DNA of 64,000 bases from Vicugna vicugna (lineage: Eukaryota), in NCBI GenBank assembly GCA_013265495.1, contig MU057989.1, forward strand, positions 1,753,513 to 1,817,512, in the 5' to 3' direction. The position numbers and the translations under genes are program-made. This document shows positions 3,801 to 62,232 of this stretch, piece after piece; position 1 is the first letter of the stretch; every line of letters begins with the position of its first letter. The notes beneath the pieces were generated by a model. That model did no database searches. It was given only the letters and a program-made list of their open reading frames with translations, and was not told the DNA's origin.

Positions 3801-5939
3801 ACCCTCTTCCATCTAAAAAGAGTTTCAGGTCCTTTCTATCAGCTAGACCTCTGCAGGCATCTGCAAATGCAACCCAGCTGAAATAGGTTTAAGCATCTTC
3901 TAAGGCTCAGCCTGTAAATCTTCCTCCCTTGATGGGGAACTGCAGAGCCAAGATTTTGCAGACAACCCTCCCCTTCCCCCAGCCAGAGTTCCTCCTCCTT
4001 CAAAGTCCCAGGGAAGAGGTAGAAGACAGTTCTGCATGGTCTAAACTCTTAGGGAACTCCCTACGTATCACTGGGGTACTGGTTTCAGAAGGTAACTTCA
4101 AAAGCTACCACTTATTGAGCTCTTAGCATGTGCCAGGCATGCACTAAGAATTCTGTATGCATCACTTCACCAAAAACTCATACAGCCCTGCAACACTGAC
4201 ATTAATATCCCCGTTCTGGAGGGAAGGAGACATAAGTACTTTTCTGAAACAACTTGCTTGACCATTCTTGAGTATCAAGGACAAGTCTGACTTAAAGGTA
4301 TCAGACTCTGGCCATCTGGGCAAGCCAGAAATAGCCTGCAGGCCTGTGAGGCAAGACCCAAATACCCCCTCTTTAAGGTAAGTGAGCAAGGACAGCCCAG
4401 GAGCCCTGAGTCTCCGGTCTTCCCTACTACCAGCCTCCCAAGAAAACCACAGGAGTCTCTCCCTGCAGGAGGCGGTATTCCCCACCCTGTCACAGGCAGG
4501 GCGCAAATTCCTTGGCTCCAGGACAAGCTAGGCGTTTTCTCTCCGGCAACTGCCTAGGGTCACACAACAGCAAGGCCCAGCACTGAAATGCAAGCCCACA
4601 GAAACATAGTGAAAAGAGTTCACCGAGCAGGATCTGGGCCGGGGTCAGACAGTGGCTGAACACCAGGCTTGTTGGGGCCTCTTCTTGGAGTTCCTATTAA
4701 AAGTCTAGGCTGAAGCCCCTGGGCTACAAGAAAGCCCCCAACTCCACAGTTAGGGCCCCACAAGCCCGGGAAGAGCCGGACTGCATCTACAGGATCCACT
4801 GGTTCTGTGACACTTGTTCTGTTGCTGTTCCAGGCTGACACGTCTGAGCACCACTGCCAGACTGACGTGCCCACAGGGCAGAGGGAGTGTCAGCACGTCC
4901 CAGCAACGGGCAGGAACAAGTCCGGAAAATAAAAATAGAACCTGGGTAGTAAAAGTCTAACCCTTTTTTCCCCTTCATGCTGCTGAGTCTAGCTTCACTC
5001 ACTCACAGGGTGCCCTGTAAAGAGGCCTGGCCCCGGAGTTCCTAGTAGGAAAGGGCTGCTCCCAACACTGCAGCTCCCTGGGCTGTGTGCACCTGGCACT
5101 GACGTCTGGAGCCTGGGCAGAACAACTGCACCCACCCTGTAGGAACTCTGCCCTCTCCCCTTGATGAGAACCCTACCAAAGAGCCTTTCAAAGACTTTCA
5201 GGGAGAGCATGGACTCTAGAGCAGGAGCTCCAGCCCCTCTCCCTCAGGCAGGTCCTAAGACACTTTGGGCCCTGATTGGATGTGAAACACCCACTCCTGT
5301 GAGGGTGTGGGAGGAGCTGCCTCCCAGAGCTGACCTGCCCACCCCAGGACAGGCAGCAACACCCCCAATTCCAGATAGGACTCCAGTGTGGGGACACTAC
5401 TGATGGAGGGGAGGCCCTGCCTCCTAGGCACGGGGTTCCCCAGAATTTGGGGTTCTCAGCTGGTACCTCTTTGGAAAGATAATTCTGTGCTCTCCTGGGC
5501 ATGGAGAGGACTGAGAAAAAGGGAAACCAGACGGGAGTGATTTTTGAAGCTGCCTCTTTCTTACCCCTTCAGTCAAGAAAGAGGCAGGAATCTCCCACTT
5601 TTCCCTTTGGGAACTCCCTGGCCCACCTCTCAGCCCCTGGCCCTCACTTCTCACTGAGGCTGGCCCCTGCTATTGGCTGGGGTCCGCTCTGTGCCCAGGC
5701 AGCCGAAGCCCCCGCCTCAGGCCGGAGAATGTGCCCAAGGTGGGGAGGATGTGCCTCCAAGCAGCCTTCATTTACTCTGTTGATGTTTATCTGGCACGGG
5801 GCTGCAGTTCTGTCTCCAGGTTTTGGGTTTGGGGAGCTCCAAATCTCCCTGTGGAGAGACGTAGGGACTGTCTACACCTGGGAGTGCTTGGCTGTCTCCA
5901 TTTTGCTCCTCATCTCTTTCAGGGGGAAAACATTTTCAA

Positions 5940-6100
5940 ATTCAACCAATCGGTGGGCGGATTCCCTCTGCAGAGGCGTGTCCCAAAGGGTTAACGCAGC
6001 CACCCAGAAGTGGGTATGGGAGAGAAGAGCCAATCAGGAGGGCGTGGGGGTGTGCCCTGGGGGCTCATGAGGACGGTCTGGGGCACTCAGGGCAGCAGCT
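5940..6100 (+). promoter_or_regulatory. H2AX-type promoter remnant
   Basis: CCAAT boxes at 5946-5950 and 6030-6034. The string ggagagaagagccaatcaggagggcg..gtgtgccctgggggctcatgagg resembles the human H2AX promoter as recalled, with the TATA position mutated. Confidence 0.55.
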
Positions 6101-6168
6101 CTATTCTGCCGGTGGGCTGTCCCGGGGCCCTGGGAGGCCTTCTCCTCATAGCTCCTCTCCCGCATAGC

Positions 6169-6631
6169 ATGATGGGCTCTGGCAAGACGGGGCACAAGGT
6201 CCGCAATAAGACTAGACACAAGGCCACACACAACACCTCCGCCACGACCAGCGACCAGATCAGCACCAAGCCCAAGTCACTCCCTGGGCGCCGGCCTGCA
6301 GTTCCCGGTGGGCCGCGTGCACCGAGCACGTGGGCACAGATGCTCCCATCTACATGGCTGCGGTGCTCGAGTACCTCACTGCTGAGATGTTGGAGCTGGC
6401 GGGGAACACGGCCTGGGACAAGAAGAAGACATGGATAAACCCCCGGCACCTGCAGCTAGACATCCGCAGCGATGAAGAGCTCAGCAAACTGCTGGGAGAC
6501 GTGGCCATCCCCCAGGGAGGCGTCCTGCCCAACATCCAGCCCGAACTGCTGCCCAAGAAGACCAGCATGCCCAGGTGGCAGAAGGCACCACCAGCAGCAA
6601 GACGTCCACCCAGATCCCAGAGGAGCAATGA
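6169..6631 (+). pseudogene. Histone H2AX-derived pseudogene with an extended N-terminal tail
   Basis: Pieces MMGSGKTG..KPKS / [11 protein letters not shown] / [61 protein letters not shown] / [20 protein letters not shown] and a tail colinear with GKKATQASQEY point to H2AX. Frameshifts near 6280 (-2), 6324 (-26, loses LLRKGNYA) and 6593 (-1). Confidence 0.88.
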
Positions 6632-7092
6632 GGGTACCCCCTTCCTCACAACCTCCGTCCAACCCTCCCCTCCTCAGCCCCTCACAAAGGTCCTTTAAAC
6701 CTCACTAAAAGACCTTTCAGAATAAATGTATTTTTTCACAGCAACTCATCTCTCGATTTACTGGCGAGCAGTACAAGCTTGGAGCTTGGATTCGGTAACA
6801 ATTTAAAAAACTGGAGACAGATGCACACAAAGAGGACACCATGTGAAGGTAAAGGCAGAGATTAGGGCGATGCTTCTTCAACTAATGAGCACCACCGACT
6901 GCCTGCAAATCACTAGGCAATGGTGCTCGTTGGTTGTAGAGTTTCAGGTTCTTGCTATTAGCCAGACCTCAGCAGGCATCTGCAGGTGCAATCCAAGGCT
7001 CAGTCTTCCTCCCTGGATGGGGACCTGCAGAGCCAAGATTTTAAACATCCCTCCTTCCTCCAGCCAGGGTTCCTTCTCCTGCAGTGTCCTAG

Positions 7093-13914: not shown

Positions 13915-14640
13915 ACTGGGCTCGGGCAGCTGGCGCTGTGGTCCCGAGGCCGGCGGAGCCTGGACGTGAGCTCGGCTCGGCTCGGGTCCCGACGGGTCTC
14001 CACACCTCCCCAGGCCGGGCCTGTGAGCTCGCCCGCACCACGCGGGGTCTCGAGCCTCTGAGGGCCCCGGGCCCCGAGCTCCCTCCCTCCCGACGGCGTC
14101 GGAGAACTGACGGGGGTCCTGAGCTTCCGGCCTGCGGGGTCGGAAAGACCCCTGCCGGGGGCTTAACGCGCCTGGCGCGGCAGCAGCTCCACAACCGCCC
14201 CCGCTCCTCCGGCGGTAAGCGCCTCCCGGCCCTCGGACTCCAGGGAGCGGACCCCGGCCTGGTCGCCCCGCCCCTCCTCTGCATCGGAGCCCCGCCCCCA
14301 CGTGACGCCCCCCTTTCACCCTCCTCCTCCCCCTCTTCGTCACGCCACCCCGTCCCCACCTGCCGCCCCTGGCGCTCCCCGCTCGCCCACCGTCCCCCGT
14401 TTCCCTCTCAGTCCTTCTCGCTCCACCGGGCCCCTCAGCCTTTCCCCTAAGGCCACCGTTCTTTCCCTCAATCCGCCGCCCTCCCCGCCCAACATCGGCT
14501 TTTTCCGTCCATTCTCAGCCCTGTTGTCGGCCATTTCCGTCAAGACTCGGCTCCCTTCGTCACTACAGTGCCCTACGTAGGCCACCCTGGGGCCCTCTCA
14601 GCCCTCTCCGCCAACTCTCGGTTCTTTCCGTTGCACCCGG
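13915..14640. promoter_or_regulatory. CpG island / putative promoter with no recognisable coding exon
   Basis: Dense intact CpGs, GC boxes (ccccgcccc near 14265 and 14290) and a CACGTGAC E-box near 14298. Confidence 0.7.
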
Positions 14641-14780
14641 CTCTTAGCCTGGACCAAGGAATTCTTTCTGCACGTTAAAATCTTGGGATCCACGCATATA
14701 TAATCTGTGATTATTCCTCTGTCTTTATTGAAATCACATCTTCTGGAAGAGATCTGATCCCCTGGAAGCTCTAGCACATT

Positions 14781-15648
14781 CTAGGGGTTAAGGGTCAAGG
14801 GTAAAGGTCAACATCTGGGTCAGGGTCAAGGGTCACAGGATCAGAGTTAGAGGGTTAGGGGTTAGAATTAAGAGTGTCAAGGTCAGGGTCAGGGTCAAGG
14901 GTCACAGTCATGATCTGGGGTATAGCGTTAGGGTTAGAGGTCAGGGTCAAAGGTTGTCAGGGATTAGGGATCAGAGTGTGAATGAATTATACAGCCAGCC
15001 ATATCAGTAAACAAAGGATACTGTGGCCATCAAGTCATCCGACGCTACCACCACCCCTGACAGTGAGCAGAGAGATCTTAGGATGGAAACAAGCAGGCAG
15101 CCTGGCCTCTGCAGCCACCCAAGTAGTGCCCCCGAGGGAACTCTGGATGGGAAAGAACAGGACACTGGCCCTAGACAGCTAGGTGCGTATCCAAAGAATG
15201 ATTTCAATAAGCCCAGATGTTTGCACCTTTCTGTAAATAAAAAAGTGCTAAATTCCTTAACTTGAGATATCTGCCTTTGTTTTTGTTTTTAGTTAACAGT
15301 AATCTTTTGATGTTCTGACTACCTGGTCTTTGTGGCAAAACTCCTATATATCCGGGCTCCTCCCCTGCCTCTTTGGAGCAGTCCCTCAGAGCAATCTGAG
15401 AGGCTGCCTCTTAGGTTCTGGTCCTCAGAATAAATAAAGTCTGCAGAATAAAATAACTCTCAACTTTTAGGTTATGCATTTTTAAGTCGACAAGAGTCAC
15501 ATCAGGGTTAGAGGGTTAAAGGGTCATACTCGCAGTCAGGGTAATGGGTCAGGATTGGTGTGGGGGTCAGGGGTTAGGGCGAGGGCAAGGATGAAGGCAA
15601 GACGCATTAGGGCTTCAGAGTTAAGTATTAGGCCTTAGGGTCAGGGTA
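14781..15648 (+). repeat. Degenerate telomere-like (TTAGGG/TCAGGG/TCAAGGG)n array split by a solo LTR
   Basis: gggttaggggttag, gggtcagggtcaaggg, gttagggttagagggtcaggg and ccttagggtcagggt occur on both sides of the LTR. Confidence 0.7.
14977..15492 (+). mobile_element. Complete ERV1 solo LTR (MER41-like)
   Basis: TG...CA ends, 4-bp TSD agag (14973-14976 and 15493-15496), TATA-like cctatatat near 15345, and AATAAA. Confidence 0.85.
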
Positions 15649-18600
15649 GATTTAAACATAACTGGCCCTCTTCCCCCCTCTTCCCTCTTCATCTCTGAGG
15701 CCTCCAGGATGGACAGGAGGCTCCCAGGGTTACATGTGAGTGTGGGGTTGAGTTGGATCATTAGATTTTTGGCCTCTAGTCCTGGACTCTGATAGAAGAT
15801 GAATGAAGTGTCCACCCTGGTCTCTGACTGTTTAAAGTCCAACTCAACCTCAGCCAAGGGTTGTTATGGCCTCAGAGGTCAGAGTTTCCCTCTGTCATCC
15901 CCCCTGGGAAAAGTGGAGTTGGTTCTATGCTCTCTGGGCAGCCCCTGGTCCAGCATAGCCCTGACACACACAGGCACTCAGTAGACACGTGTGAATTTGT
16001 ACAGGACTGGGTGCAGCCACTTGCCAGTCCCCAGGTTGCCTTTTTGAAGGCTTCCTGAAGGTCCTTCCTGGCACTGGCTGCATCCTTTGTCCCATCCAAG
16101 TAGGCAGCAGTTAACAGTCAGGCCTTTGACAGGATATCGCTAGACCCCTGACCACTCAGGCATCTGTGTTCCTCCAGCTCAGGTCAGTGTGGACCCTGTT
16201 AAGCCCCCCTGACCAATTACTGAGATGACTGTGCTGCTGGGCAACTGAACAGCCACCTGGGCAGTGTAGCATCCCCTTGGGACGCTTCAATTCTCTATAT
16301 CCATGTGGTTGTCAAAAGGGCCTCCCCCTCAGAGCCTCTTAGCCTGCCAAGAGAGGTAATTACCCTCCATGTGGTTACAACCACCACACGCAGACTGTGG
16401 CCCTGCAATTCTTTGGCCTTCTAGTTGTTACAAACTTGACATTTACACTCGTTAAGAATCAAAGCTATGGGAGCAAATGGGCCTTACAATGGGTGGTTTT
16501 ACCCCAAGGCCACAGGGTCCCAGGGAGCCACGTACGTCCAGGGCCCAGTCCCTGTGGCCTCTGGGAAGCCATCTAACTGTGGATTCCATGTTATGGAATA
16601 ATCCTTGAGCCTCCCGCTGCTTCATCGAGTAAGAGTTTCCTTACCACCCCAGCTATTTTCTCTGCAGTCCCCTGCAGCCTACAGATCTTCACCCATTCAT
16701 CAGAACATGCAGTGTTTCTAGACACTTTCAGCAGAAGCACCCCGGGCCTGTGTAAGCAGAGGAACAGATTGGGTTCAGAAGCTGGAGCTCCCCGAGATCT
16801 TGACACTTGGAGGGGACCAGAGATGGCATCCCTGATAAGACATGTCCCTACTCCTTCCAGCCTCCTTGACCCCACGCAGGTCCACTTCTCAGAGGTCTTC
16901 ATGGAAGGGCCCCCTTGTAGGGGCCTTTGATGTGTCAGATGGCCAGAATGTCACCCAGAGACGTGCTGAGTGAAGGGTCCCCCATCATGTCCCCAGCCCC
17001 AAACCATGAGATGCATGTGGGTCTCAGGAATGCCCTCCTCCAGGAATGAGGCCCTTTGTGTTCCAAAATGGCCCAACCGTGAGGGAGGGGCTTGGTGGGC
17101 GCTGTTGTCCATCAGTTCCTGGCTCTTCCATCCCTGTTTCTCCCGACAGGGGCCCTTGTAGGAAAAGCTTCTCAGGTTCTACTCTGAGGGAGGATTGCAG
17201 TCTTAGATGTCCCCAGGGAGCCTGGGCCCAGGGGACACTCAGGGAGTAGGGGGATCCATGGCGAGCAGGGGAAACAAGCTCCATCCAAAAGGGCTCCCAC
17301 CCAGCCCCGGAAGGGCTTGGTCCCGGGGGAATGTCACCCAAGAGACCAGAACTCCTCACTTCATATCAAAACAAACAAACAAACAAAGCCAGAAGCCTGG
17401 GTTTTTGTCCGAAATCTTCCAGTTTTTTAATGTTAGAATTAATTTAAAAAATCTAGATTTGCCCCTGGGACCTAGTTCAAGGCCCTTGGTTTAAGACCAA
17501 GGATGAGCTGGGTGGCCACCCCGAGGCAGGGTCCAAGCTGGATGCTCTGTCACTGCACAGCCCTGGTGCCCATGTCCCTACATGGTGCCTCCTCATGGAT
17601 GAACAGGGGACGACTTCATTCCCCAGGAACCAGCCCTCATACGTGGTCAGGCTATGGAGGGGTCAGGGCTCTTCCGGGGCTACCCTTTCCTTCAACGGAT
17701 CCGTGGCAGCTGGAGCTTCAAGGCCCCACCCACATGTTCCCGCGCACCCCTCCCCCGCCCCGCCCCAGCATTGAGTCAGCCCTCTATCCACCAGCCTAGG
17801 TTTGCTCTGCATGCTGAAGGCCTGGAATTACCTCCTCCAGGGAAGCATCCCTGTGAAGGAGAGCAAGTGTGCCTTCCCTGGAGCTATAAACCTGTACTGA
17901 GCTCCTGCTGTGTGCTTGGTCTTAGGTTGGGAGCTTGAGGGACTATGGCAAGCCTGGGCATCTGACCGCTAGAGACCAATTCAATCAGATGAGAAGGCAG
18001 TGATGTCAAGGGCTTCAAGGAGAAGGGAGGACACATCTGATGGGGGAGGAGGGCCAGTGACTGGGGCGGCCTCTTGAAACAGCACCACGATGTGATCTAG
18101 TGGGGACAGCGGACAGGTGTGCTTGGTTGAACAGAATGCACAATGGCTCAGAAGATGCGGGGAGTAGGGGGGACGTGACCTGTCCCTGTGACAGGCCTCT
18201 TTCCCTGCTTCCTCGGTAATGATGGGCCTGGTGATGAGAAGAGCTCTTAGTAAGCCCTCCTGGGGCCCTGTTACTAGTTCTCTATTACAGACAGGACACT
18301 GAGACACAGAGAGGGAGCAGGGAACCTGCTATAACTCTGGCCCTATGGCCCGTGTCCTTTACAACCAGCTCTATGCTGCCAGCAGGGGTGCAGGCCTGGA
18401 ATGGACGTTGAAATTAGCCTGACCCCCAGGGCCCCATCAGATGCAGAGTCACTCTCAGGAAACACCCCTCAACACCTACTTGCATACCCCCAGGGACAGG
18501 GACCTCATTGCTATTCCTGGAAACTAGCTGGGCCTCCCTGTGGATTGGCCTGGGACAGCCCAGGAGAGGCTTGGAGTGGCCACAGGCTCCCTGAGGCTCC

Positions 18601-21035
18601 CTATCCCCAGCTGAGCAGCTCTGGTCCCCCTGATGGTCCCTGGCAGGGGCCTGATGACAGGAGGTGTCAGCCATGCAACCAGATGTGCTGTGGAGATGAG
18701 GAAACAGTGCGCATGATGCACAAACATGTGGATGTTCAGGTATTCACTCAACAAACATTGACTCAGGCCTTGCAGTGTGGCCAGCCTGGCCCTGGGCCTG
18801 GGTGTCCAGCAGTGAATACAATGCAGCCCCTTGAGCCTCCTGGGAAAGCAGTGCTCAGAGAAATGGGCCCCCAGCACCCCCTACCTAGCTCCCCACAAAC
18901 AAACACTAGGATGAGGCTGCGGCCTGGGTCCCAGTGGAGGGTGAAGGGAGGGAGAGGACACCCAGAGCAGGCACTGACCACAAGCCCGGACACTGGAGCC
19001 CGACGTCCTGGGCTCACCTCTCAGAGCCTCAGTTTTGTCACCTGCAGAAAGGGGTGGTAACACTGGCACCTGCCACACAGATTTCCACGAGAAGCCAGTG
19101 ACCTCCTACTTCTAACCACACAGGACAGCGTCTGGCCACGGATCAGGCTGCTGCTCACCTCACAAGAGTCTAACTCCACTTTAAAGATGAGAAAACCAAG
19201 GCGGAGAGGGGTTATCAGACCAGATCCAGCTCCCTCCTCATGCTCTGCTGATGTCCCCTTTCTGCCCAGCTCTCCTGCGTTCACCTCGTCTCTCTGTCCC
19301 TTGTAACCACCCAGGAAAATAGGTGCTAAGAACCTCCAAGCAAATTAATGCATAAATGGAGACAAATCCTCTCCCCACCTTGGGCTCTCAGGGCCATGGG
19401 CTGGACAGGGATATCGGGCTCCCCTAAACTGTCCAGGAGGCACGGCATGTCCATCACCTCATTTCCACCCAACATGGAGAAGGTGTGGGGCCAAGAACCA
19501 GAGGGTGCAGGAAAAACCCTGGGGTCAGGGTGTCGGGTGGGCAGGGGGGAGGCACAGAGAGGCCTCTGGAAGATAGTGATCAGTCAACAGAGGTGTGGGG
19601 AATGAGGATGCCCGGGAGGGGCAGAGGGCCGAGTCCACCCCATGCTGGACCCTGAGTTGGGGTGAGAATTGGGACAAGCCTGGCCCCGCCGAGGTATACC
19701 CCTCATCCAGAAAAGGGGAGAGGAGAAGACAAGGAGACCAGTACAGATGGCCCCACGAGGGCCAATATCCGGGCCTCCTGGGGCGATGCTGAGACATGGG
19801 ATCACGCGGCTCCTGGGAAAGGAGAGAGTGTTGTCTGGGTGTCAGGTCTGCATCAGACCCCAGTGCTGCCCCTACCAGTTGTGCGACCCCAAAACATTCC
19901 CCGACCTCTCTGTGCCAGGCTTTTGAACCCTGATTCAGAGGACTGCTGTGCTTGGCACACAGTAGGCCCTCAACCAGAGGAAAAAGCCAGTCTTCCCAGA
20001 AGAACCTCTCCTCTTACTCCTCTTATGTGTCCCCAAGCAAACCCCATGTGCCACACGTCACCAGAGCTGATCCTTGACAAGCAGGGCAAGTGCAATCCAG
20101 CCGGTCCTCCCTCCTGCCTGAGGCCTTTCCCTCCTCGGTGACAGTGGCTTGGTGCAGGTCTCAGCATCCCAGAAGTCTGAACTGAAATTTTGTGACCTGC
20201 GGGATTCCCTGTTTCACACAACCTGGTCTCCAGGTCCTTTCAACAAGGCATAAGAGCACCTGCTCAGTGTTTAGCTGCAAATCCTCCATTTACAAATTGC
20301 ACCATCACTTCCCAGCTGGGAGAGATGAATTCCAGAGCACGTGACCATCCGACTGATGACTTCAGGGGAATCATGCCCGCCTACTACTCCACTCCTCAGA
20401 GCCCGCTCCTAGAAGAGGGGTTAGTGATCCACGGCCATGCACAGTTTTATCGGAACACAGCCGCACCCACTATTGGAAACATGTGTGAGAACGAGAGGAT
20501 CCTGAGCACCTGGATCCCTGGCACCCACAAAGCAGAGGTCAGGACAAAAAACAGAAGGGGAGAAAGCACTTTCAGGTCATACGTCTGATAAGGGGTTAAC
20601 ACCCAAAACATATAAAGAACTCCTACAACTCAACAGCTAAAAAAAAAAAGAAAAAAGAAAAGAAAAGAAAAAGAAAAAAGAAAAGCAATCTGCGTTAAAA
20701 AATGGGCAGAGGAACTGAATAGACATTTTTCCAAAGAAGACACACAGATGGTCAATAGGCACATAAAAAGATGCTCAACATCACTCATCACCAGGGAAAT
20801 GCAAATGAAAACCGCAGTGAGATGTCACCTCACACCTGTCAGGATGGCTGTCATCAAAATACAAGAGATGATAAGTGGCGAGGGTGTGGAGAAAAGGGAA
20901 ACTCGTACACTGTTGGCAGGAATGTGAACTGGTGCTGCCACTGTGGACAACAGTACGGAGGGTCCTCCAAAAATTAAAAATAGAGCTATAGTATGACCCA
21001 GCAATTCCACTCCTGGGAAAATACCTAGAGGAAAC

Positions 21036-43420: not shown

Positions 43421-44669
43421 CACACCTGAAAAAGCTGAATTTGCACTTTAAAAGGAACTGCCTGGTGATTTCCAGCATTCAAGTTTAAGTGGAAACTTCA
43501 AGACTCCTGAAGGGCCAGAATCCTCCTCTAAGAGTTTAAAATCTGCATGATAATTTCAGTAACTCAGAAACAAGGCTTGATTCGTTTTAGCTTTAACCGA
43601 TAACCTTCCCAGTATTCACCGGTCTGAAGGTTAGCGATGCCTTCAGATACCGCCACCCTTCCCGTTGGACAAGGTGACCCTCACCAAGATCGAACTGATG
43701 ACTTGTGAGTCCCCCCAGTTACAGTGAGCCCCCAGGGGCATCTACCATTTCATCTCCAGGCCTTTACGACGCAGATAATCCGCCTATCTAGTCTGTGATC
43801 CTTAGAGATCTGCCCACCCCATCCCGCAAGGCATGGAGCCATCTTCTCCGTCCTCCACCTCAGGGTCAGCAAATGCTGGAGAGCCTGCCCAAACTAGACC
43901 TGTGGAGAAGAAATACGTACATCACACGATTCCACAGGGGGAAACCACATGAAAATGCTGATATTGGGTTACTCTGCCCTACAAAACCGGCAGTTTCATA
44001 GGACTCAGCAATATGTTCCTATCGACTGTTTTTCCTCCTCAAAAGACTAAAGTTAAAAAAAAAAAAAAAGCTACTCTAGGGACAAGATTCTGTCACGGGT
44101 AGTCCGGGCCAGGGTTGCTAATACACACGGCAATTTACTACAGTAACTGAGCGCCTAGGAACACCATCCATTCCAAGTTCGATCCACGCCCTCCCCTTAC
44201 TTAGACGCGATGGAAGCCCCCGCCGCGCGTCTCAAGGTTCTCGGTCACCCCCGCTCCCAGAGGGGCAGCCTCTGAGCTTTACAAGGGAGCGCAAGGGAGG
44301 GAACACGGTTGTCAAGTTCACCGGCGACCAGGCAAGGCTTCGAACCAGCGGGCCAGCTACGTAGGCGCCCTACGCGCCGCGGGAGCCGGGACCCTTGACC
44401 TCCACCGTCCCCTCTAACCCTTCGCGGAGACGCCCGAGCCCAAGATGGCGACGGGAGCGGAGTCGGAGTCTGAGGGGCGGGGCCTACAGGGGCGGCGCCG
44501 GCGGGGCGGAGTCTGAGCAGCCGTCCCTGGGCGGGGCCGCGTGACGCTACGTGGCCGCGGGGCGGTGCCAGCGGCCCTGCTCCGCCCGGCCTGCTCGGCT
44601 CGGGGGCTTCGGCTGTCGGGCCGGAGCTCTCTTTTTGGCGGGTCGGTCCCGCGGCTCCTCGGGGACATC

Positions 44670-44763
44670 ATGAAGTCCCCGGTTGCAGACCTGGCCCCGA
44701 CCGACGGCGAGGAGGGCTCATACCGCACGCCGCTCCTGCAGCGCGCTCCGCGGGCGGAAGCCG
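44670..44763 (+). CDS. SLC17A5: Sialin coding exon 1
   Basis: MKSPVADLAPTDGEEGSYRTPLLQRAPRAEA; 94 nt; donor CCG|gtgagc. Confidence 0.95.
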
Positions 44764-44977
44764 GTGAGCAGCGGCGCGAACGGTGGCTTTCGGGCGTGTG
44801 GCGGTCGCAGGGTAGGGGTGGGCAGAGCTGCTTAGGTGCGAAGGGACTCGAGCACTGGAAGCCCATTCAGGGTCCCCTCAGCCTCGCCTGCTCGGGTGCC
44901 TCGGGACCCGCTCTGGGGTCGAGGGGGCGGGCGGGACCGTGAGGCCTGGTGTGGCCGGGTGGACGCTCAGACGGGAC

Positions 44978-45092
44978 CTCGGCAGGTGCAGCCCGGAGTC
45001 CTTGGCAGGTGCAGCCCCTGGGACTCCGGCAGGTGTAGCCCCCGAGGCCCAGCAGGTGCAGCCACGGGGCCCGGCAGATGCAGCCCGCGGGC
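44978..45092 (+). repeat. ~23-bp GC-rich tandem repeat x5 (core gcaggtgcagcc)
   Basis: Five successive units are directly visible. Confidence 0.85.
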
Positions 45093-46099
45093 CCAGGCGG
45101 GGAGCTGCTGGGCGCTGCCAGCCCTGGGCCCCCGGCGGTTTTCGGTAGTATGGAGCGGGAGACCCTGTGGAAGGGCCGACTCGGGGGGAAACCTGCGGCT
45201 GAAGGGTAGAAGGCGGGGCGGAGCCATAGTCCTTCCCTCCCGGTCGCTGCCCGGTTGCTGTCACAGCTGCTCGTCCTCCAGCATGTGACCTGGTCGCCAG
45301 CTCCCTGGGCGTGGAAGGGAGACAGAAGCGGTCTGAGGTTAAGGTTTGTGAGTATGCGGAGGGAAATTATTGGATAACCCAGCGAATACCTTGAAATTGT
45401 GCAGTAAGATATTAAAAGTACTGCACACATTTTTTTTCCATCGTAGAATAGCTGTCTACGATTACGTCGTAGCAGTCTACAATTAAAGTTAGGAAATAGT
45501 TTGGTTATCCTCAGGATGGGATCTCTGTAGCTGTCTAAGGTAATTTGCCCAAGTCTTGCAACAAATAGAAAAGGAGGTACTTACAACGCATCTTCCCAGA
45601 ATTTGGGGAAATTAAAATATTGCTTTCTGATCCTTTTGTGATGGAACTTTTTAAAAAGAAATTAAAACCAAAGAATAAATCACTTTGCATGCATTCTATA
45701 GTTTCAAAGATGTGTACATGAGAAACAGAGTTGAATTAGAAATTTGACTTTTCCTGACCAAAACCAGTATAGTCCTGTTATCTTTTAAATTTGTTTTTTA
45801 ATATTACCAGGTGGTGGCAGTGCAGGTGGCAACATTATAGCTCCATATGGCAGCTGGGAGCTTATTTTTGTGGATCTCACTGTAAACACTGTACCATGGT
45901 GACGTTTTATCTGGAAGTCAGATTTAGTTCCATAAACTGACCTTTTCCTGTGACATGTGTGTTAGACTTCATAGCCATCTTCTGTAAAGTAACCTAGTGT
46001 AGAAACACAGAAACAAATACCGTAAGAAAGACTAGAGATTACTATATTCTGTTGCAATTAGGGAAAAATACATAAATATAATCAAATTTTAGCTTAAAT

Positions 46100-59515: not shown

Positions 59516-59749
59516 GGTAAAAGGTACCAGTGGGATGCAGAAACTCAAGGATGGATTCTCGGGTCTTTCTTTTATGGCTACATCATCACACAGATTCCCG
59601 GAGGATACATGGCCAGCAGAGTCGGGGGGAAGCTGCTGCTGGGATTCGGGATCCTGGGCACCGCCGTCTTCACCCTGTTCACCCCCCTTGCTGCCGATCT
59701 CGGAGTTGGAGCCCTCGTCGCCCTCAGGGCGCTGGAAGGACTTGGAGAG
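59516..59749 (+). CDS. SLC17A5: Sialin exon 3
   Basis: [48 protein letters not shown]; catag| acceptor, |gtaatt donor; 234 nt. Confidence 0.97.
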
Positions 59750-62232
59750 GTAATTTTTATTCTGATCTGTTTTTCTTCTTACCCTACATCACTTTCTTGT
59801 CTTCTTAAAGGTCTTCCTTGGTATAAATATGAACCCAAAAATGCCACTGGAAGGTAACCAGGAGTTATTTTTTTAATTAGAAAAATGATCAACTGTAAAC
59901 AACCTGAGTAGATTTTGTATGTGGTCAGTGAGGTCTTGTGCAGAAGCACCCCGAAATCAGAAGCTTTACTGGAAGACTAGAGAAGCCATTTTCGGGGGGA
60001 CACATCATAGTTCCTTACCCACTCTTTCCTTAGGAGATAAGAAAATAAACCACTGTTAAAACCATGAAGATAGACCATCCTGTCTCTTGAACTTTTGCCT
60101 CCATTTACCCCGGCTCAGTCACTGAGTGGACAGGTCTGAAACTCGTGGTCCACAATAGATTGTCAAATTCCCTTGTTTTTTGGTGGGGGGGAGTACAGAA
60201 GATTTTTGTTTATTTTTGTCGGGGGAGGTAATTAGGTTTATTTATTTATTTTTAGAGGATGTACTGGGGATTGAACCCAGGCCTTCATGCATGATAAGCG
60301 TGCACTCTACCACTTGAGCTATACCCTCCCCCTAACTTTTAAATTTGTTGTTACTCGTAGAACTTTTTCTTTATCATTTGTCCTTTTTTCTGGTCCTCTA
60401 ACTTAGAGACAAATAATCTATCATTTTATGTAACTGGTTTTTTTTTAGGTTTTTTTGGTTATTAGGTTTATTTATTTGATTACTTCTCTTAAGAGAAGGT
60501 ACCAGGGATTGAACCCAGGACCTCATGCATGCTAAGCACGCTGTCTACCACTTAAGCTGTACCCTCCCCCTGTAACTATCTTCTTTTAGTTCAGGATTCT
60601 TCTGGCCTTCCTGCTGCTTTTAATATTGTTATTATTAACTTTTATCTCTGTTTTTTCTTCTCCTCCTAAAACCTCCACCATTTAAAATTTTTTAATTGTA
60701 AAAATTTTAGTCCTTATTTTTCTTTTCCTTTCTGCTTCTCTTTGCATTTCATCATATATATCTCCATCTTTAAGTAAGGGTCTCTTTTCATTTCTAACTT
60801 TGAACTTCTACCCTTGAAACCAAAGCATAGCTTTATTTTGCTCTCTTTCAATATTTCTTTAACTCAAGCAAGACAGTGGCTCTGGGTTTGGTGTATAGCA
60901 TGAAGGTTATTTTAGATAGCGCTGTATCCTGCTGTGTTGGAAAAACACTGACTGGAGTCATACAATCAGAGTTTGAATAATAACTCCACTGAATCTAGGT
61001 TGTAATATAATATGTACAAGGGTTATACAAATACAGTATATATAACGTGTAGCATAAACATAATATATAAAGTACCTGCGCCATCCTCAGTCACAGCTTA
61101 GACGTGATGACAGTTACTAGAAAACTTTGGAAATTGCCAGGTGCTATTTAAGTCTAAGCTTTGATCACTCATCCAAATGTTCTTACTGTGTCCTTATCAA
61201 ATAGAGATGTCCTAATAAACCCATCTTGACTACAAAATAAACTCACCCCTATTACCAGGTTCCTCTTCTCCTTACCTCAGTGAAGTATCTGTTTTACAGA
61301 TAAAGAAACTGCAGTCCTAGGAGGTTACCTAATCTTTCTGAGGCTGCACAGCTAGTGAGTGGCCCCAAGGGGACCTGTGACTCCGCTGCTTTGACTCGAC
61401 CAGAAGCTATTGAAGGAGTAGGTTCCCTCCCCACCCCCACATCCTGCTCTCCCATGGTCTCTGCGGGCCTCCCTGCCTCCACTGTTCTGTGGCCCCTCCC
61501 TCACATCAGCCACTGACATGCTTAATTGAAGTGTAGTTGACATGCAGTATTACATTTCAGGTGTACAACGTGGTGATCCAGTTTTCAAAGGTTATACTCC
61601 GTTTATACTTACTATCAAATATTGGCTGTATTCCTCGTAATGTGCAGTATATCCTTGTAGCCTATTTATTTTATACCTAGTAGTTTCTACCTTCATCCCC
61701 TGCCTGTATCTTACCCCTCCCTTAATTGGCATTTACTAGGCTGATCATCACCAGAAAAGAAAAAAAAAATCCATAAACACTCCAATTGAATTCATCGTTT
61801 TTTGGGCAGGGCCACTTTTTCCTGTTGATCAAGGTCAGTTGGGATATTCTTCCAGTGTCCCACAGTATGAGCTGAGTGTTTTTAAAAGTTAGTTATTGGT
61901 GGCGTTCCCATTTCATTCACTAATAAAGTAGCAAAATTAGCCTTGAGAGGGATCCCTTGTGTCATCATTCAGCACGTTCTTTAGATTTATTGTAGCCCGT
62001 ACCTTGCAGTTCTCAAACCAGGTGACAGAACCCACAAGTCTGTGTTCAGGTGTGGAAAGAACTTCATTATGAGGTATTTTCACTCAGTACCATAGAGACA
62101 GCTCTCTCCATGAAACGTGATTCGAGTTTGAGTCTTTACGCAGAATTTTCTCTGGCCGCAGAATACTCAGGTGAATTTGAAGCATTAACAAAACTGCTTG
62201 TGTGTGACCAGAAATCTCTCTCCCCTCCCCAG

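Follow-up and report, generated by a model that had tools for sequence, protein, structure and literature searches.

The 64,000-nt stretch of Vicugna vicugna DNA analysed here (the window) carries, at positions 5865-6744, what is most likely the dead ortholog, in a camelid outside the genus Camelus, of a once functional, replication-independent H2A variant derived from H2AX. In this genome the locus has no role as a protein-coding gene and is an ordinary pseudogene. It lies approximately 53 kb upstream of, and on the same strand as, an exon of SLC17A5 (sialin) at 59516-59854 (+), which represents the only other gene recognised in the window and matches residues 98-178 of PDB 8dwi_A (E 1e-42).

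Aligned with the H2AX gene of the same genome using MAFFT, the coding sequence displays four indel events (+60, -2, -26 and -1), three of which (-2, -26 and -1) shift the reading frame (Table 1). Frame 3 is open over 6216-6698 and encodes the histone fold and the docking domain from about 6318, while the homologous counterpart of the H2AX C-terminus is found in the second frame again. In the H2AX frame, the sequence finishes with IPEEQ followed by the TGA at 6629-6631, which is not the stop codon of the open reading frames (ORFs) found in Camelus. The preliminary description had closed the feature at 6631; its end has been moved to 6698, the Camelus-type frame running on to the TAA at 6696-6698. 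The frame-3 piece is recognised by the Pfam model Histone_H2A_C (PF16211) with 62 bits (cut-off 20) and stays just under the cut-off of the Histone model (PF00125; 26.1 against 26.4 bits) because helix α1 is deleted. A programmed frameshift or a protein with an internal start was considered for the window copy and rejected, as the 26-nt deletion takes out α1.

Table 1. Features of the H2AX-derived locus, in window coordinates.
Feature	Position	Strand	Basis
Promoter and 5'UTR segment homologous to the H2AX promoter	5865..6168	+	blastn, MAFFT
CCAAT boxes	5946-5950, 6030-6034	+	sequence reading
Position of the H2AX TATA-like element, mutated	6064-6072	+	
N-tail coding piece, frame 1, 37 codons from ATG-ATG	6169..6279	+	translation
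+60-nt expansion, seven 12-nt units of 4 codons each	6190-6273	+	translation, MAFFT against H2AX
2-nt deletion junction, first disabling frameshift	6280..6281	+	MAFFT against H2AX; Camelus proteins uninterrupted here
Short frame-2 piece, still encoding a conserved 11-residue block	6281..6321	+	three-frame translation, third tblastn HSP
26-nt deletion junction, second disabling frameshift, most of helix α1 gone	6321..6322	+	MAFFT
Frame-3 open piece: fold from the end of α1, docking domain, 36-residue tail	6318..6698	+	tblastn, Pfam
TAA, stop homologous to the Camelus ORF stop	6696-6698	+	tblastn
1-nt deletion junction relative to H2AX, common to the open Camelus ORFs	6587..6588	+	MAFFT, tblastn
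TGA homologous to the H2AX stop, reached in the H2AX frame only	6629..6631	+	alignment
Remnant of the H2AX stem-loop region; downstream purine-rich element still alignable	6684..6714	+	MAFFT
AATAAA poly(A) signal; inferred cleavage site near 6744	6721..6726	+	sequence; conserved in both retrocopies

The H2AX gene of this genome is located on the minus strand of contig C6892 and consists of an intact 143-aa ORF ending in SQEY. A single blastn HSP connects window positions 5865-6699 to this locus with 70% identity, covering 304 nt of sequence 5' to the start codon, in which both CCAAT boxes lie, the coding sequence and about 70 nt of the 3'UTR. The match to the canonical H2A genes of the same genome is limited to the core (positions 183-395 of a 463-nt query). 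Over a 212-nt core stretch, identity to H2AX is 83.0% and that to four canonical H2A genes 80.7-82.1%; since the core alone cannot tell H2AX and canonical H2A apart, the assignment rests on the flanks and the tails. Descent from H2AX, as first proposed, is supported by the contiguous homology, which takes in the H2AX promoter, the C-terminal tail and the start of the 3'UTR.

The homology reaches beyond the transcription start on its 5' side, and the window copy is therefore better explained by a small duplication of DNA than by retroposition; it retains promoter homology from -304 and has no A-tract, at odds with a processed pseudogene. On the question of origin only, one could instead invoke retroposition of an atypical H2AX transcript with a start more than 300 nt upstream and an extension past the stem-loop. 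The copied unit is indeed small (about 835 bp) and intronless, and a read-through polyadenylated mRNA of H2AX is known from PMC9526256, which describes dual 3' processing of H2AX transcripts, including processing at the histone 3' stem-loop. We nevertheless regard such an origin as quite unlikely, given that the homology extends over both CCAAT boxes to 304 nt 5' of the ATG, that it stops some 70 nt past the stop codon, far short of the end of the long H2AX 3'UTR, and that no A-tract follows where it ends.

Compared with its parent, to which the two-CCAAT promoter, coding sequence, C-tail and beginning of the 3'UTR can still be aligned, the duplicated copy has gained 20 residues in the N-tail and an AATAAA close behind the stop, and has lost the SQ-E-Y end, the stem-loop and an unbroken frame. 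It has also lost its CpG-island character: the observed/expected CpG ratio is 0.43 over the duplicated segment, against 0.98 in H2AX, and 0.34 over the promoter segment, against 0.94 in the H2AX promoter. Although derived from H2AX, the locus lacks both the stem-loop and the SQ-E-Y end, two of the features that define H2A.X. In place of the H2A.X motif SQ-[E/D]-hydrophobic, the H2AX-frame end reads P-E-E-Q, and the Camelus-type frame ends 36 residues later without the motif.

The in-frame N-tail expansion of 60 nt, reported initially as seven units at 6190-6273, was confirmed by translation and by the MAFFT alignment to H2AX. Its 12-nt periodicity is real and above chance: autocorrelation reaches 0.54, 0.53 and 0.50 at lags of 12, 24 and 36 nt, compared to approximately 0.3 elsewhere. 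In 5000 codon shuffles the value at lag 12 was never attained (p below 2e-4), and the p value was 0.0096 when the best multiple-of-3 lag was chosen. Tandem Repeats Finder, run with a minimum score of 30, reported no repeat, as expected for units that are alike at only 4-9 of their 12 positions.

A protein search with a profile of three N-tails gave three matches among 15 candidates. The best was a cluster of eight members, comprising six named Camelus records; the other two matches were Camelus models of a retrocopy described below (LOC123617099, for example). The orthologs include XP_064334842.1 ('histone H2A, sperm') and XP_031303636.1 in C. dromedarius, XP_074202464.1 ('histone H2A-like') and XP_010948238.1 in C. 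bactrianus, and EPY78004.1 ('histone H2A type 3') in C. ferus. In all three species the ORF is uninterrupted over 184-185 codons and annotated as protein-coding. The database names are automatic, and nothing was found that ties these records to sperm or to H2AX; the present assignment corrects such misleading labels as 'histone H2A, sperm' and 'H2A type 3'.

Using tblastn, residues 1-37 of the Camelus protein EPY78004.1 aligned to window 6169-6279 with 34 of 37 identical, and residues 60-185 to window 6318-6695 with 118 of 126 identical, in a different frame. The 36-residue tail matches that of window frame 3 at 34 positions. At the protein level the Camelus sequences differ from the window by 6-8%, and we infer same-locus orthology from the 92-94% identity, which includes the upstream non-coding piece. 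The Camelus proteins thus share the expanded N-tail, the fold and the post-frameshift tail of the window copy; their frame, however, is unbroken. They lack the -2 and -26 deletions, being about nine residues longer at the latter site, and contain the -1 deletion. Relative to these ORFs the window copy shows two frame changes, a feature of lineage-specific (unitary) pseudogenes. The preliminary description counted three frameshifts as disabling, which holds for -2 and -26; the -1 deletion does not belong with them, since it is present in the open Camelus ORF. Its expectation of intact copies elsewhere is borne out by the open orthologs of C. dromedarius, C. bactrianus and C. ferus, whereas the paralogs within this genome turned out to be two decayed retrocopies.

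The Camelus ortholog passes both Pfam models (Histone, 42.9 bits with a cut-off of 26.4; H2A_C, 62.2 bits with a cut-off of 20), and in the acidic patch and docking domain its residues line up with other H2As. An AlphaFold prediction of the Camelus protein, computed from a 16-row alignment, had a mean pLDDT of 44.6 and a pTM of 0.19, too poor to interpret. The residue aligned to window codon 6468-6470, a former CpG, is G, S or R among Camelus records P0124-P0129, varying even between two C. bactrianus records; the site is hypervariable or polymorphic.

The -2 and -26 deletions were read in a single assembly, and this is what would favour their being artefacts of assembly or of one individual, with the window gene intact like its Camelus counterpart. 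Such an explanation is extremely unlikely. Fourteen DNA runs, carrying three organism labels and stemming from four studies, contain 0.83-0.96 of 96 words sampled from 5900-6800; although these are shares of unaligned words, they argue against an assembly artefact. With an estimated three sampled words or so per junction, the runs with the highest shares could lack no more than one junction. Moreover, the 26-nt and 2-nt deletions lie outside homopolymers, which is atypical for consensus errors. Among RNA runs, four contained 0.09-0.31 of the sampled words (three of them labelled 'reproductive system metagenome'), and two more runs were guessed to be RNA; these shares are leads only and no evidence of expression, tissue or strand.

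Returning to the dead window copy, two further members of its family were located in the 2.03-Gb genome, at C1207:459.4-460.0k and C8296:1138.7-1139.1k. Both carry the N-tail insertion and the same 3'UTR as the window copy. DNA queries made from the N-tail and the tail matched only C1192 and C1207, and the whole-gene DNA query added C8296; the protein query gave N-tail matches only at C1192 and C1207. By DNA and protein queries together, the family in this genome consists of three copies only.

Promoter homology is absent from both the C1207 and the C8296 copy, each contains 3-4 frameshifting indels, and in C8296 a tract of 33 A begins exactly where homology to the window stops (window 6744). 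The features of a processed pseudogene are present in C8296 and largely so in C1207, and the two appear to be processed copies of the mRNA of the variant. They thereby resemble processed histone pseudogenes, from which the window copy differs in keeping 304 nt of promoter and in having no A-tract. Since processed copies exist, one of them with a poly(A) tract at the matching site, the parent would once have been expressed in the germ line, transcribed from about the H2AX-type start and polyadenylated at the AATAAA; the use of this signal by the ancestor is suggested by the position of the A-tract in C8296.

The Rfam model Histone3 was found at the H2AX locus (L011:2419-2465, minus strand; 32.6 bits, E 4e-6); this score of the true H2AX stem-loop is slightly below the Rfam gathering score of 34. 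At E ≤ 1 the model was absent from all three family copies, the window copy and the two retrocopies, and in the MAFFT alignment a 13-nt deletion common to all three removes the 3' arm of the stem-loop. In the H2AX frame, the retrocopies end in S-K-E-Y and S-D-E-H. The absence of an SQEY motif, noted in the preliminary description, therefore stands for the window copy, whose H2AX-frame end reads IPEEQ, with the refinement that the loss of an SQEY-type end is secondary, because the retrocopies keep such ends. The -1 deletion is absent from the C1207 retrocopy, so in the parent it is younger than that retrocopy; its presence in the open Camelus ORFs makes it older than the split of the two camelid lineages.

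In three Camelus species, the C1207 retrocopy has been modelled as a protein of 202-333 aa ('uncharacterized protein LOC123617099', 'Histone H2AX'). In these models (P0122, P0123, P0131, P0133) Pfam recognises the H2A C-terminal model alone, the fold is broken by a Pro-rich insert and the N-tail repeat region is even longer; they are probably mis-annotated pseudogenes. A full-length U6 snRNA match (L009:1182-1288; 109.7 bits, model positions 1-105) is situated about 650 bp upstream of the C1207 retrocopy.

We then compared the substitutions of the three family copies, taking H2AX as the outgroup in relative-rate tests and H2AX codons 21-118 as the fold. The core of the window copy has a dN to H2AX of 0.122, against 0.29-0.30 for the retrocopies, and a dS of 0.49, against 0.60, which gives a dN/dS of 0.25 for the window copy. 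The relative-rate counts are small, and derive from a MAFFT alignment projected on the H2AX frame from which 28 poorly aligned C1207 codons were dropped. In the fold, the window copy had accumulated 5 private replacements and C1207 17 (p 0.017); compared with C8296, the numbers were 3 and 16 (p 0.004). The two retrocopies did not differ from each other (5 in C1207 and 6 in C8296; p 1.0). Replacements in the tails were evenly distributed between the window copy and C1207 (5 vs 5; p 1.0) and between the window copy and C8296 (4 vs 6; p 0.75), and synonymous changes numbered 1 vs 3 and 2 vs 2, respectively. Because it has fewer private fold replacements than the retrocopies, the parent seems to have kept its fold under purifying selection during a large part of the period after their formation, while both tails would have run free. 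That the copy was once translated, as had been suggested initially, gains support from this contrast (3-5 private fold replacements against 16-17) and from the core dN/dS of 0.25. The open 185-codon frame of Camelus at this divergence points the same way.

Constraint since the camelid lineages split, on the other hand, looks weak in both of them, because the coding sequence has diverged as fast as its non-coding flank. Between the window and Camelus, 11 of 163 coding residues differ (6.7%), compared to 3 of 51 (5.9%) in the in-frame translation of the upstream non-coding piece; for the dead retrocopy, a manual count gave 18 of 184 (9.8%). Polarised manually against H2AX and the retrocopies, four of the replacements fall on the window lineage and five on that of Camelus, two being undecided. 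Between the dromedary and the Bactrian protein there are 3 differences in 184 residues, and one falls within the near-invariant AGLQF block. Camelus has replacements at 11 of 15 positions across H2AX codons 33-47 (Met = 1), several of which affect conserved arginines.

Such figures could also suggest that the gene never functioned, an H2AX duplicate decaying since its birth, in which the open Camelus frame and the low number of replacements would be due to chance or gene conversion. The equal divergence of coding sequence and non-coding flank (11/163 and 3/51) would agree with this, as would the depleted CpG, the mutated TATA-like element, the heavily changed helix α1 of Camelus and the replacement of the C-terminal end through a frameshift. 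We consider it very unlikely all the same. Two independent dead copies took on 16-17 fold replacements where the window copy took on 3-5, with synonymous counts alike, and the core dN/dS is 0.25. The dS to H2AX is as high as that of the retrocopies (0.49 vs 0.60), so recent conversion does not explain the low dN, and the Camelus frame is still open while each retrocopy has 3-4 frameshifting indels.

Another possibility is that Old World camels still use the gene as a functional germ-line histone variant, the window representing a clean loss in the other lineage. It departs from our preferred explanation, a variant that was functional in the past, only in whether the Camelus gene works today, and we judge it doubtful though far from negligible. 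In three Camelus species the frame of 184-185 codons is open and has been given a protein-coding model, the protein passes both Pfam H2A models, and the residues of the acidic patch and docking domain align with other H2As. Yet purifying selection has left no trace since the lineages split, the dromedary and the Bactrian camel are separated by three replacements with one in the AGLQF block, and several conserved arginines in and after α1 are replaced. Furthermore, the three Camelus species are close relatives, so their open frames count as roughly one observation. It is unlikely, in our estimate, that Old World camels possess a living, polyadenylated germ-line H2A variant born from H2AX and lost in South American camelids, with a repeat-expanded, basic, Ser/Thr/His-rich N-tail and a Pro/Ser-rich C-tail in place of the DNA-damage motif SQEY; this would be a class undescribed in mammals. 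The camel gene is a testable candidate variant, and it is there that the wider interest of the locus lies.

Under the reading that we prefer, a once functional variant that died in the window lineage, the history of the locus would run as follows. A segment of about 835 bp from H2AX, comprising 304 nt of promoter, the coding sequence and the start of the 3'UTR, was duplicated at the DNA level into a position upstream of SLC17A5. The N-tail of the copy grew by 60 nt through expansion of a 12-nt unit of the GGKA/RAKA type, and the copy lost the histone stem-loop and acquired the AATAAA. Transcribed from an H2AX-type start and polyadenylated in the germ line, the variant presumably left two processed copies behind. 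Long purifying selection on the fold would imply that the product was a functional H2A, its N-tail lengthened, basic and Ser/Thr/His-rich and its end initially of the S-x-E-Y type. Before the camelid lineages split, the 1-nt deletion would have swapped this end for the Pro/Ser-rich tail of 36 residues, after which constraint appears to have been weak in both lineages. In the window lineage, the -2 deletion and the -26 deletion, which removed α1, would have killed the frame, while that of Camelus is still open. The locus would therefore display the stepwise birth of a variant, with its promoter copied, stem-loop lost, poly(A) signal gained, repeats expanded and DNA-damage motif replaced, and then the loss of that variant from one of the two sister lineages.

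Among mammals, new histone variants are a rarity and, to our knowledge, none described so far descends from H2AX. Outside mammals, the H2A.X isoform H2A.X-F of Xenopus eggs and embryos is a lineage-specific H2A.X duplicate with an altered C-terminal end that is used in the germ line and early embryo. The camelid gene resembles it as an H2A.X duplicate with an altered C-end; the origin of H2A.X-F is an independent, amphibian one, and we know of no N-tail repeat expansion in it. The short H2A variants of eutherians are X-linked, with a shortened docking domain and a reduced acidic patch. By contrast, the present gene is located upstream of SLC17A5, keeps its docking domain (Histone_H2A_C, 62 bits) and has both tails lengthened. 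In Molaro et al. 2018 (PMC5880237), these short H2As, namely H2A.B, H2A.L, H2A.P and H2A.Q, are lineage-restricted, fast-evolving and linked to the germ line. The likeness to the camelid variant lies in its being lineage-restricted and fast-evolving, and in the birth and death of histone variants that both exemplify. A literature search, complemented by term searches in the main text of PMC5880237 and PMC9526256, yielded no H2AX-derived variant in camelids or other mammals.

Searches for relatives beyond camelids relied on protein databases. With the Camelus protein as the phmmer query against all 50% representatives, only its own cluster covered residues 1-185. Eight other matches were inspected, six of them chosen for a start at query position 11-20, and all were rejected as relatives, being ordinary H2As with upstream extensions or fusions. 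A search with the 125-aa piece, restricted to lengths of 68-219 (a filter that leaves the Camelus cluster outside), gave at least 120 generic H2As; 13 of these were inspected and rejected likewise, as they were models of canonical H2A or H2AX in which ends were mis-annotated or internal segments duplicated. No relatives outside camelids were seen in the protein databases, which do not hold pseudogenes, so that this is a weak negative and the term 'camelid-specific', which depends on these databases, is weak as well.

In a protein search with the core region, the 120 best matches were fish and shark proteins of 250-280 aa named 'H2AX-like'. Their length and doubled scores suggest two tandem H2A domains, and they are probably gene models in which adjacent histone genes have been merged; any length-tolerant search with an H2A query is dominated by them.

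Elsewhere in the window, two ORFs tested at 44.8-45.3 kb for exon 1 of SLC17A5 had no PDB match. Two GC-rich blocks (0.55-0.58 GC), at 14000-20000 and 44000-46000, contain long ORFs on both strands, with no Pfam match among those tested. These blocks may be CpG islands or promoters, the one at 44000-46000 perhaps being the promoter of SLC17A5.
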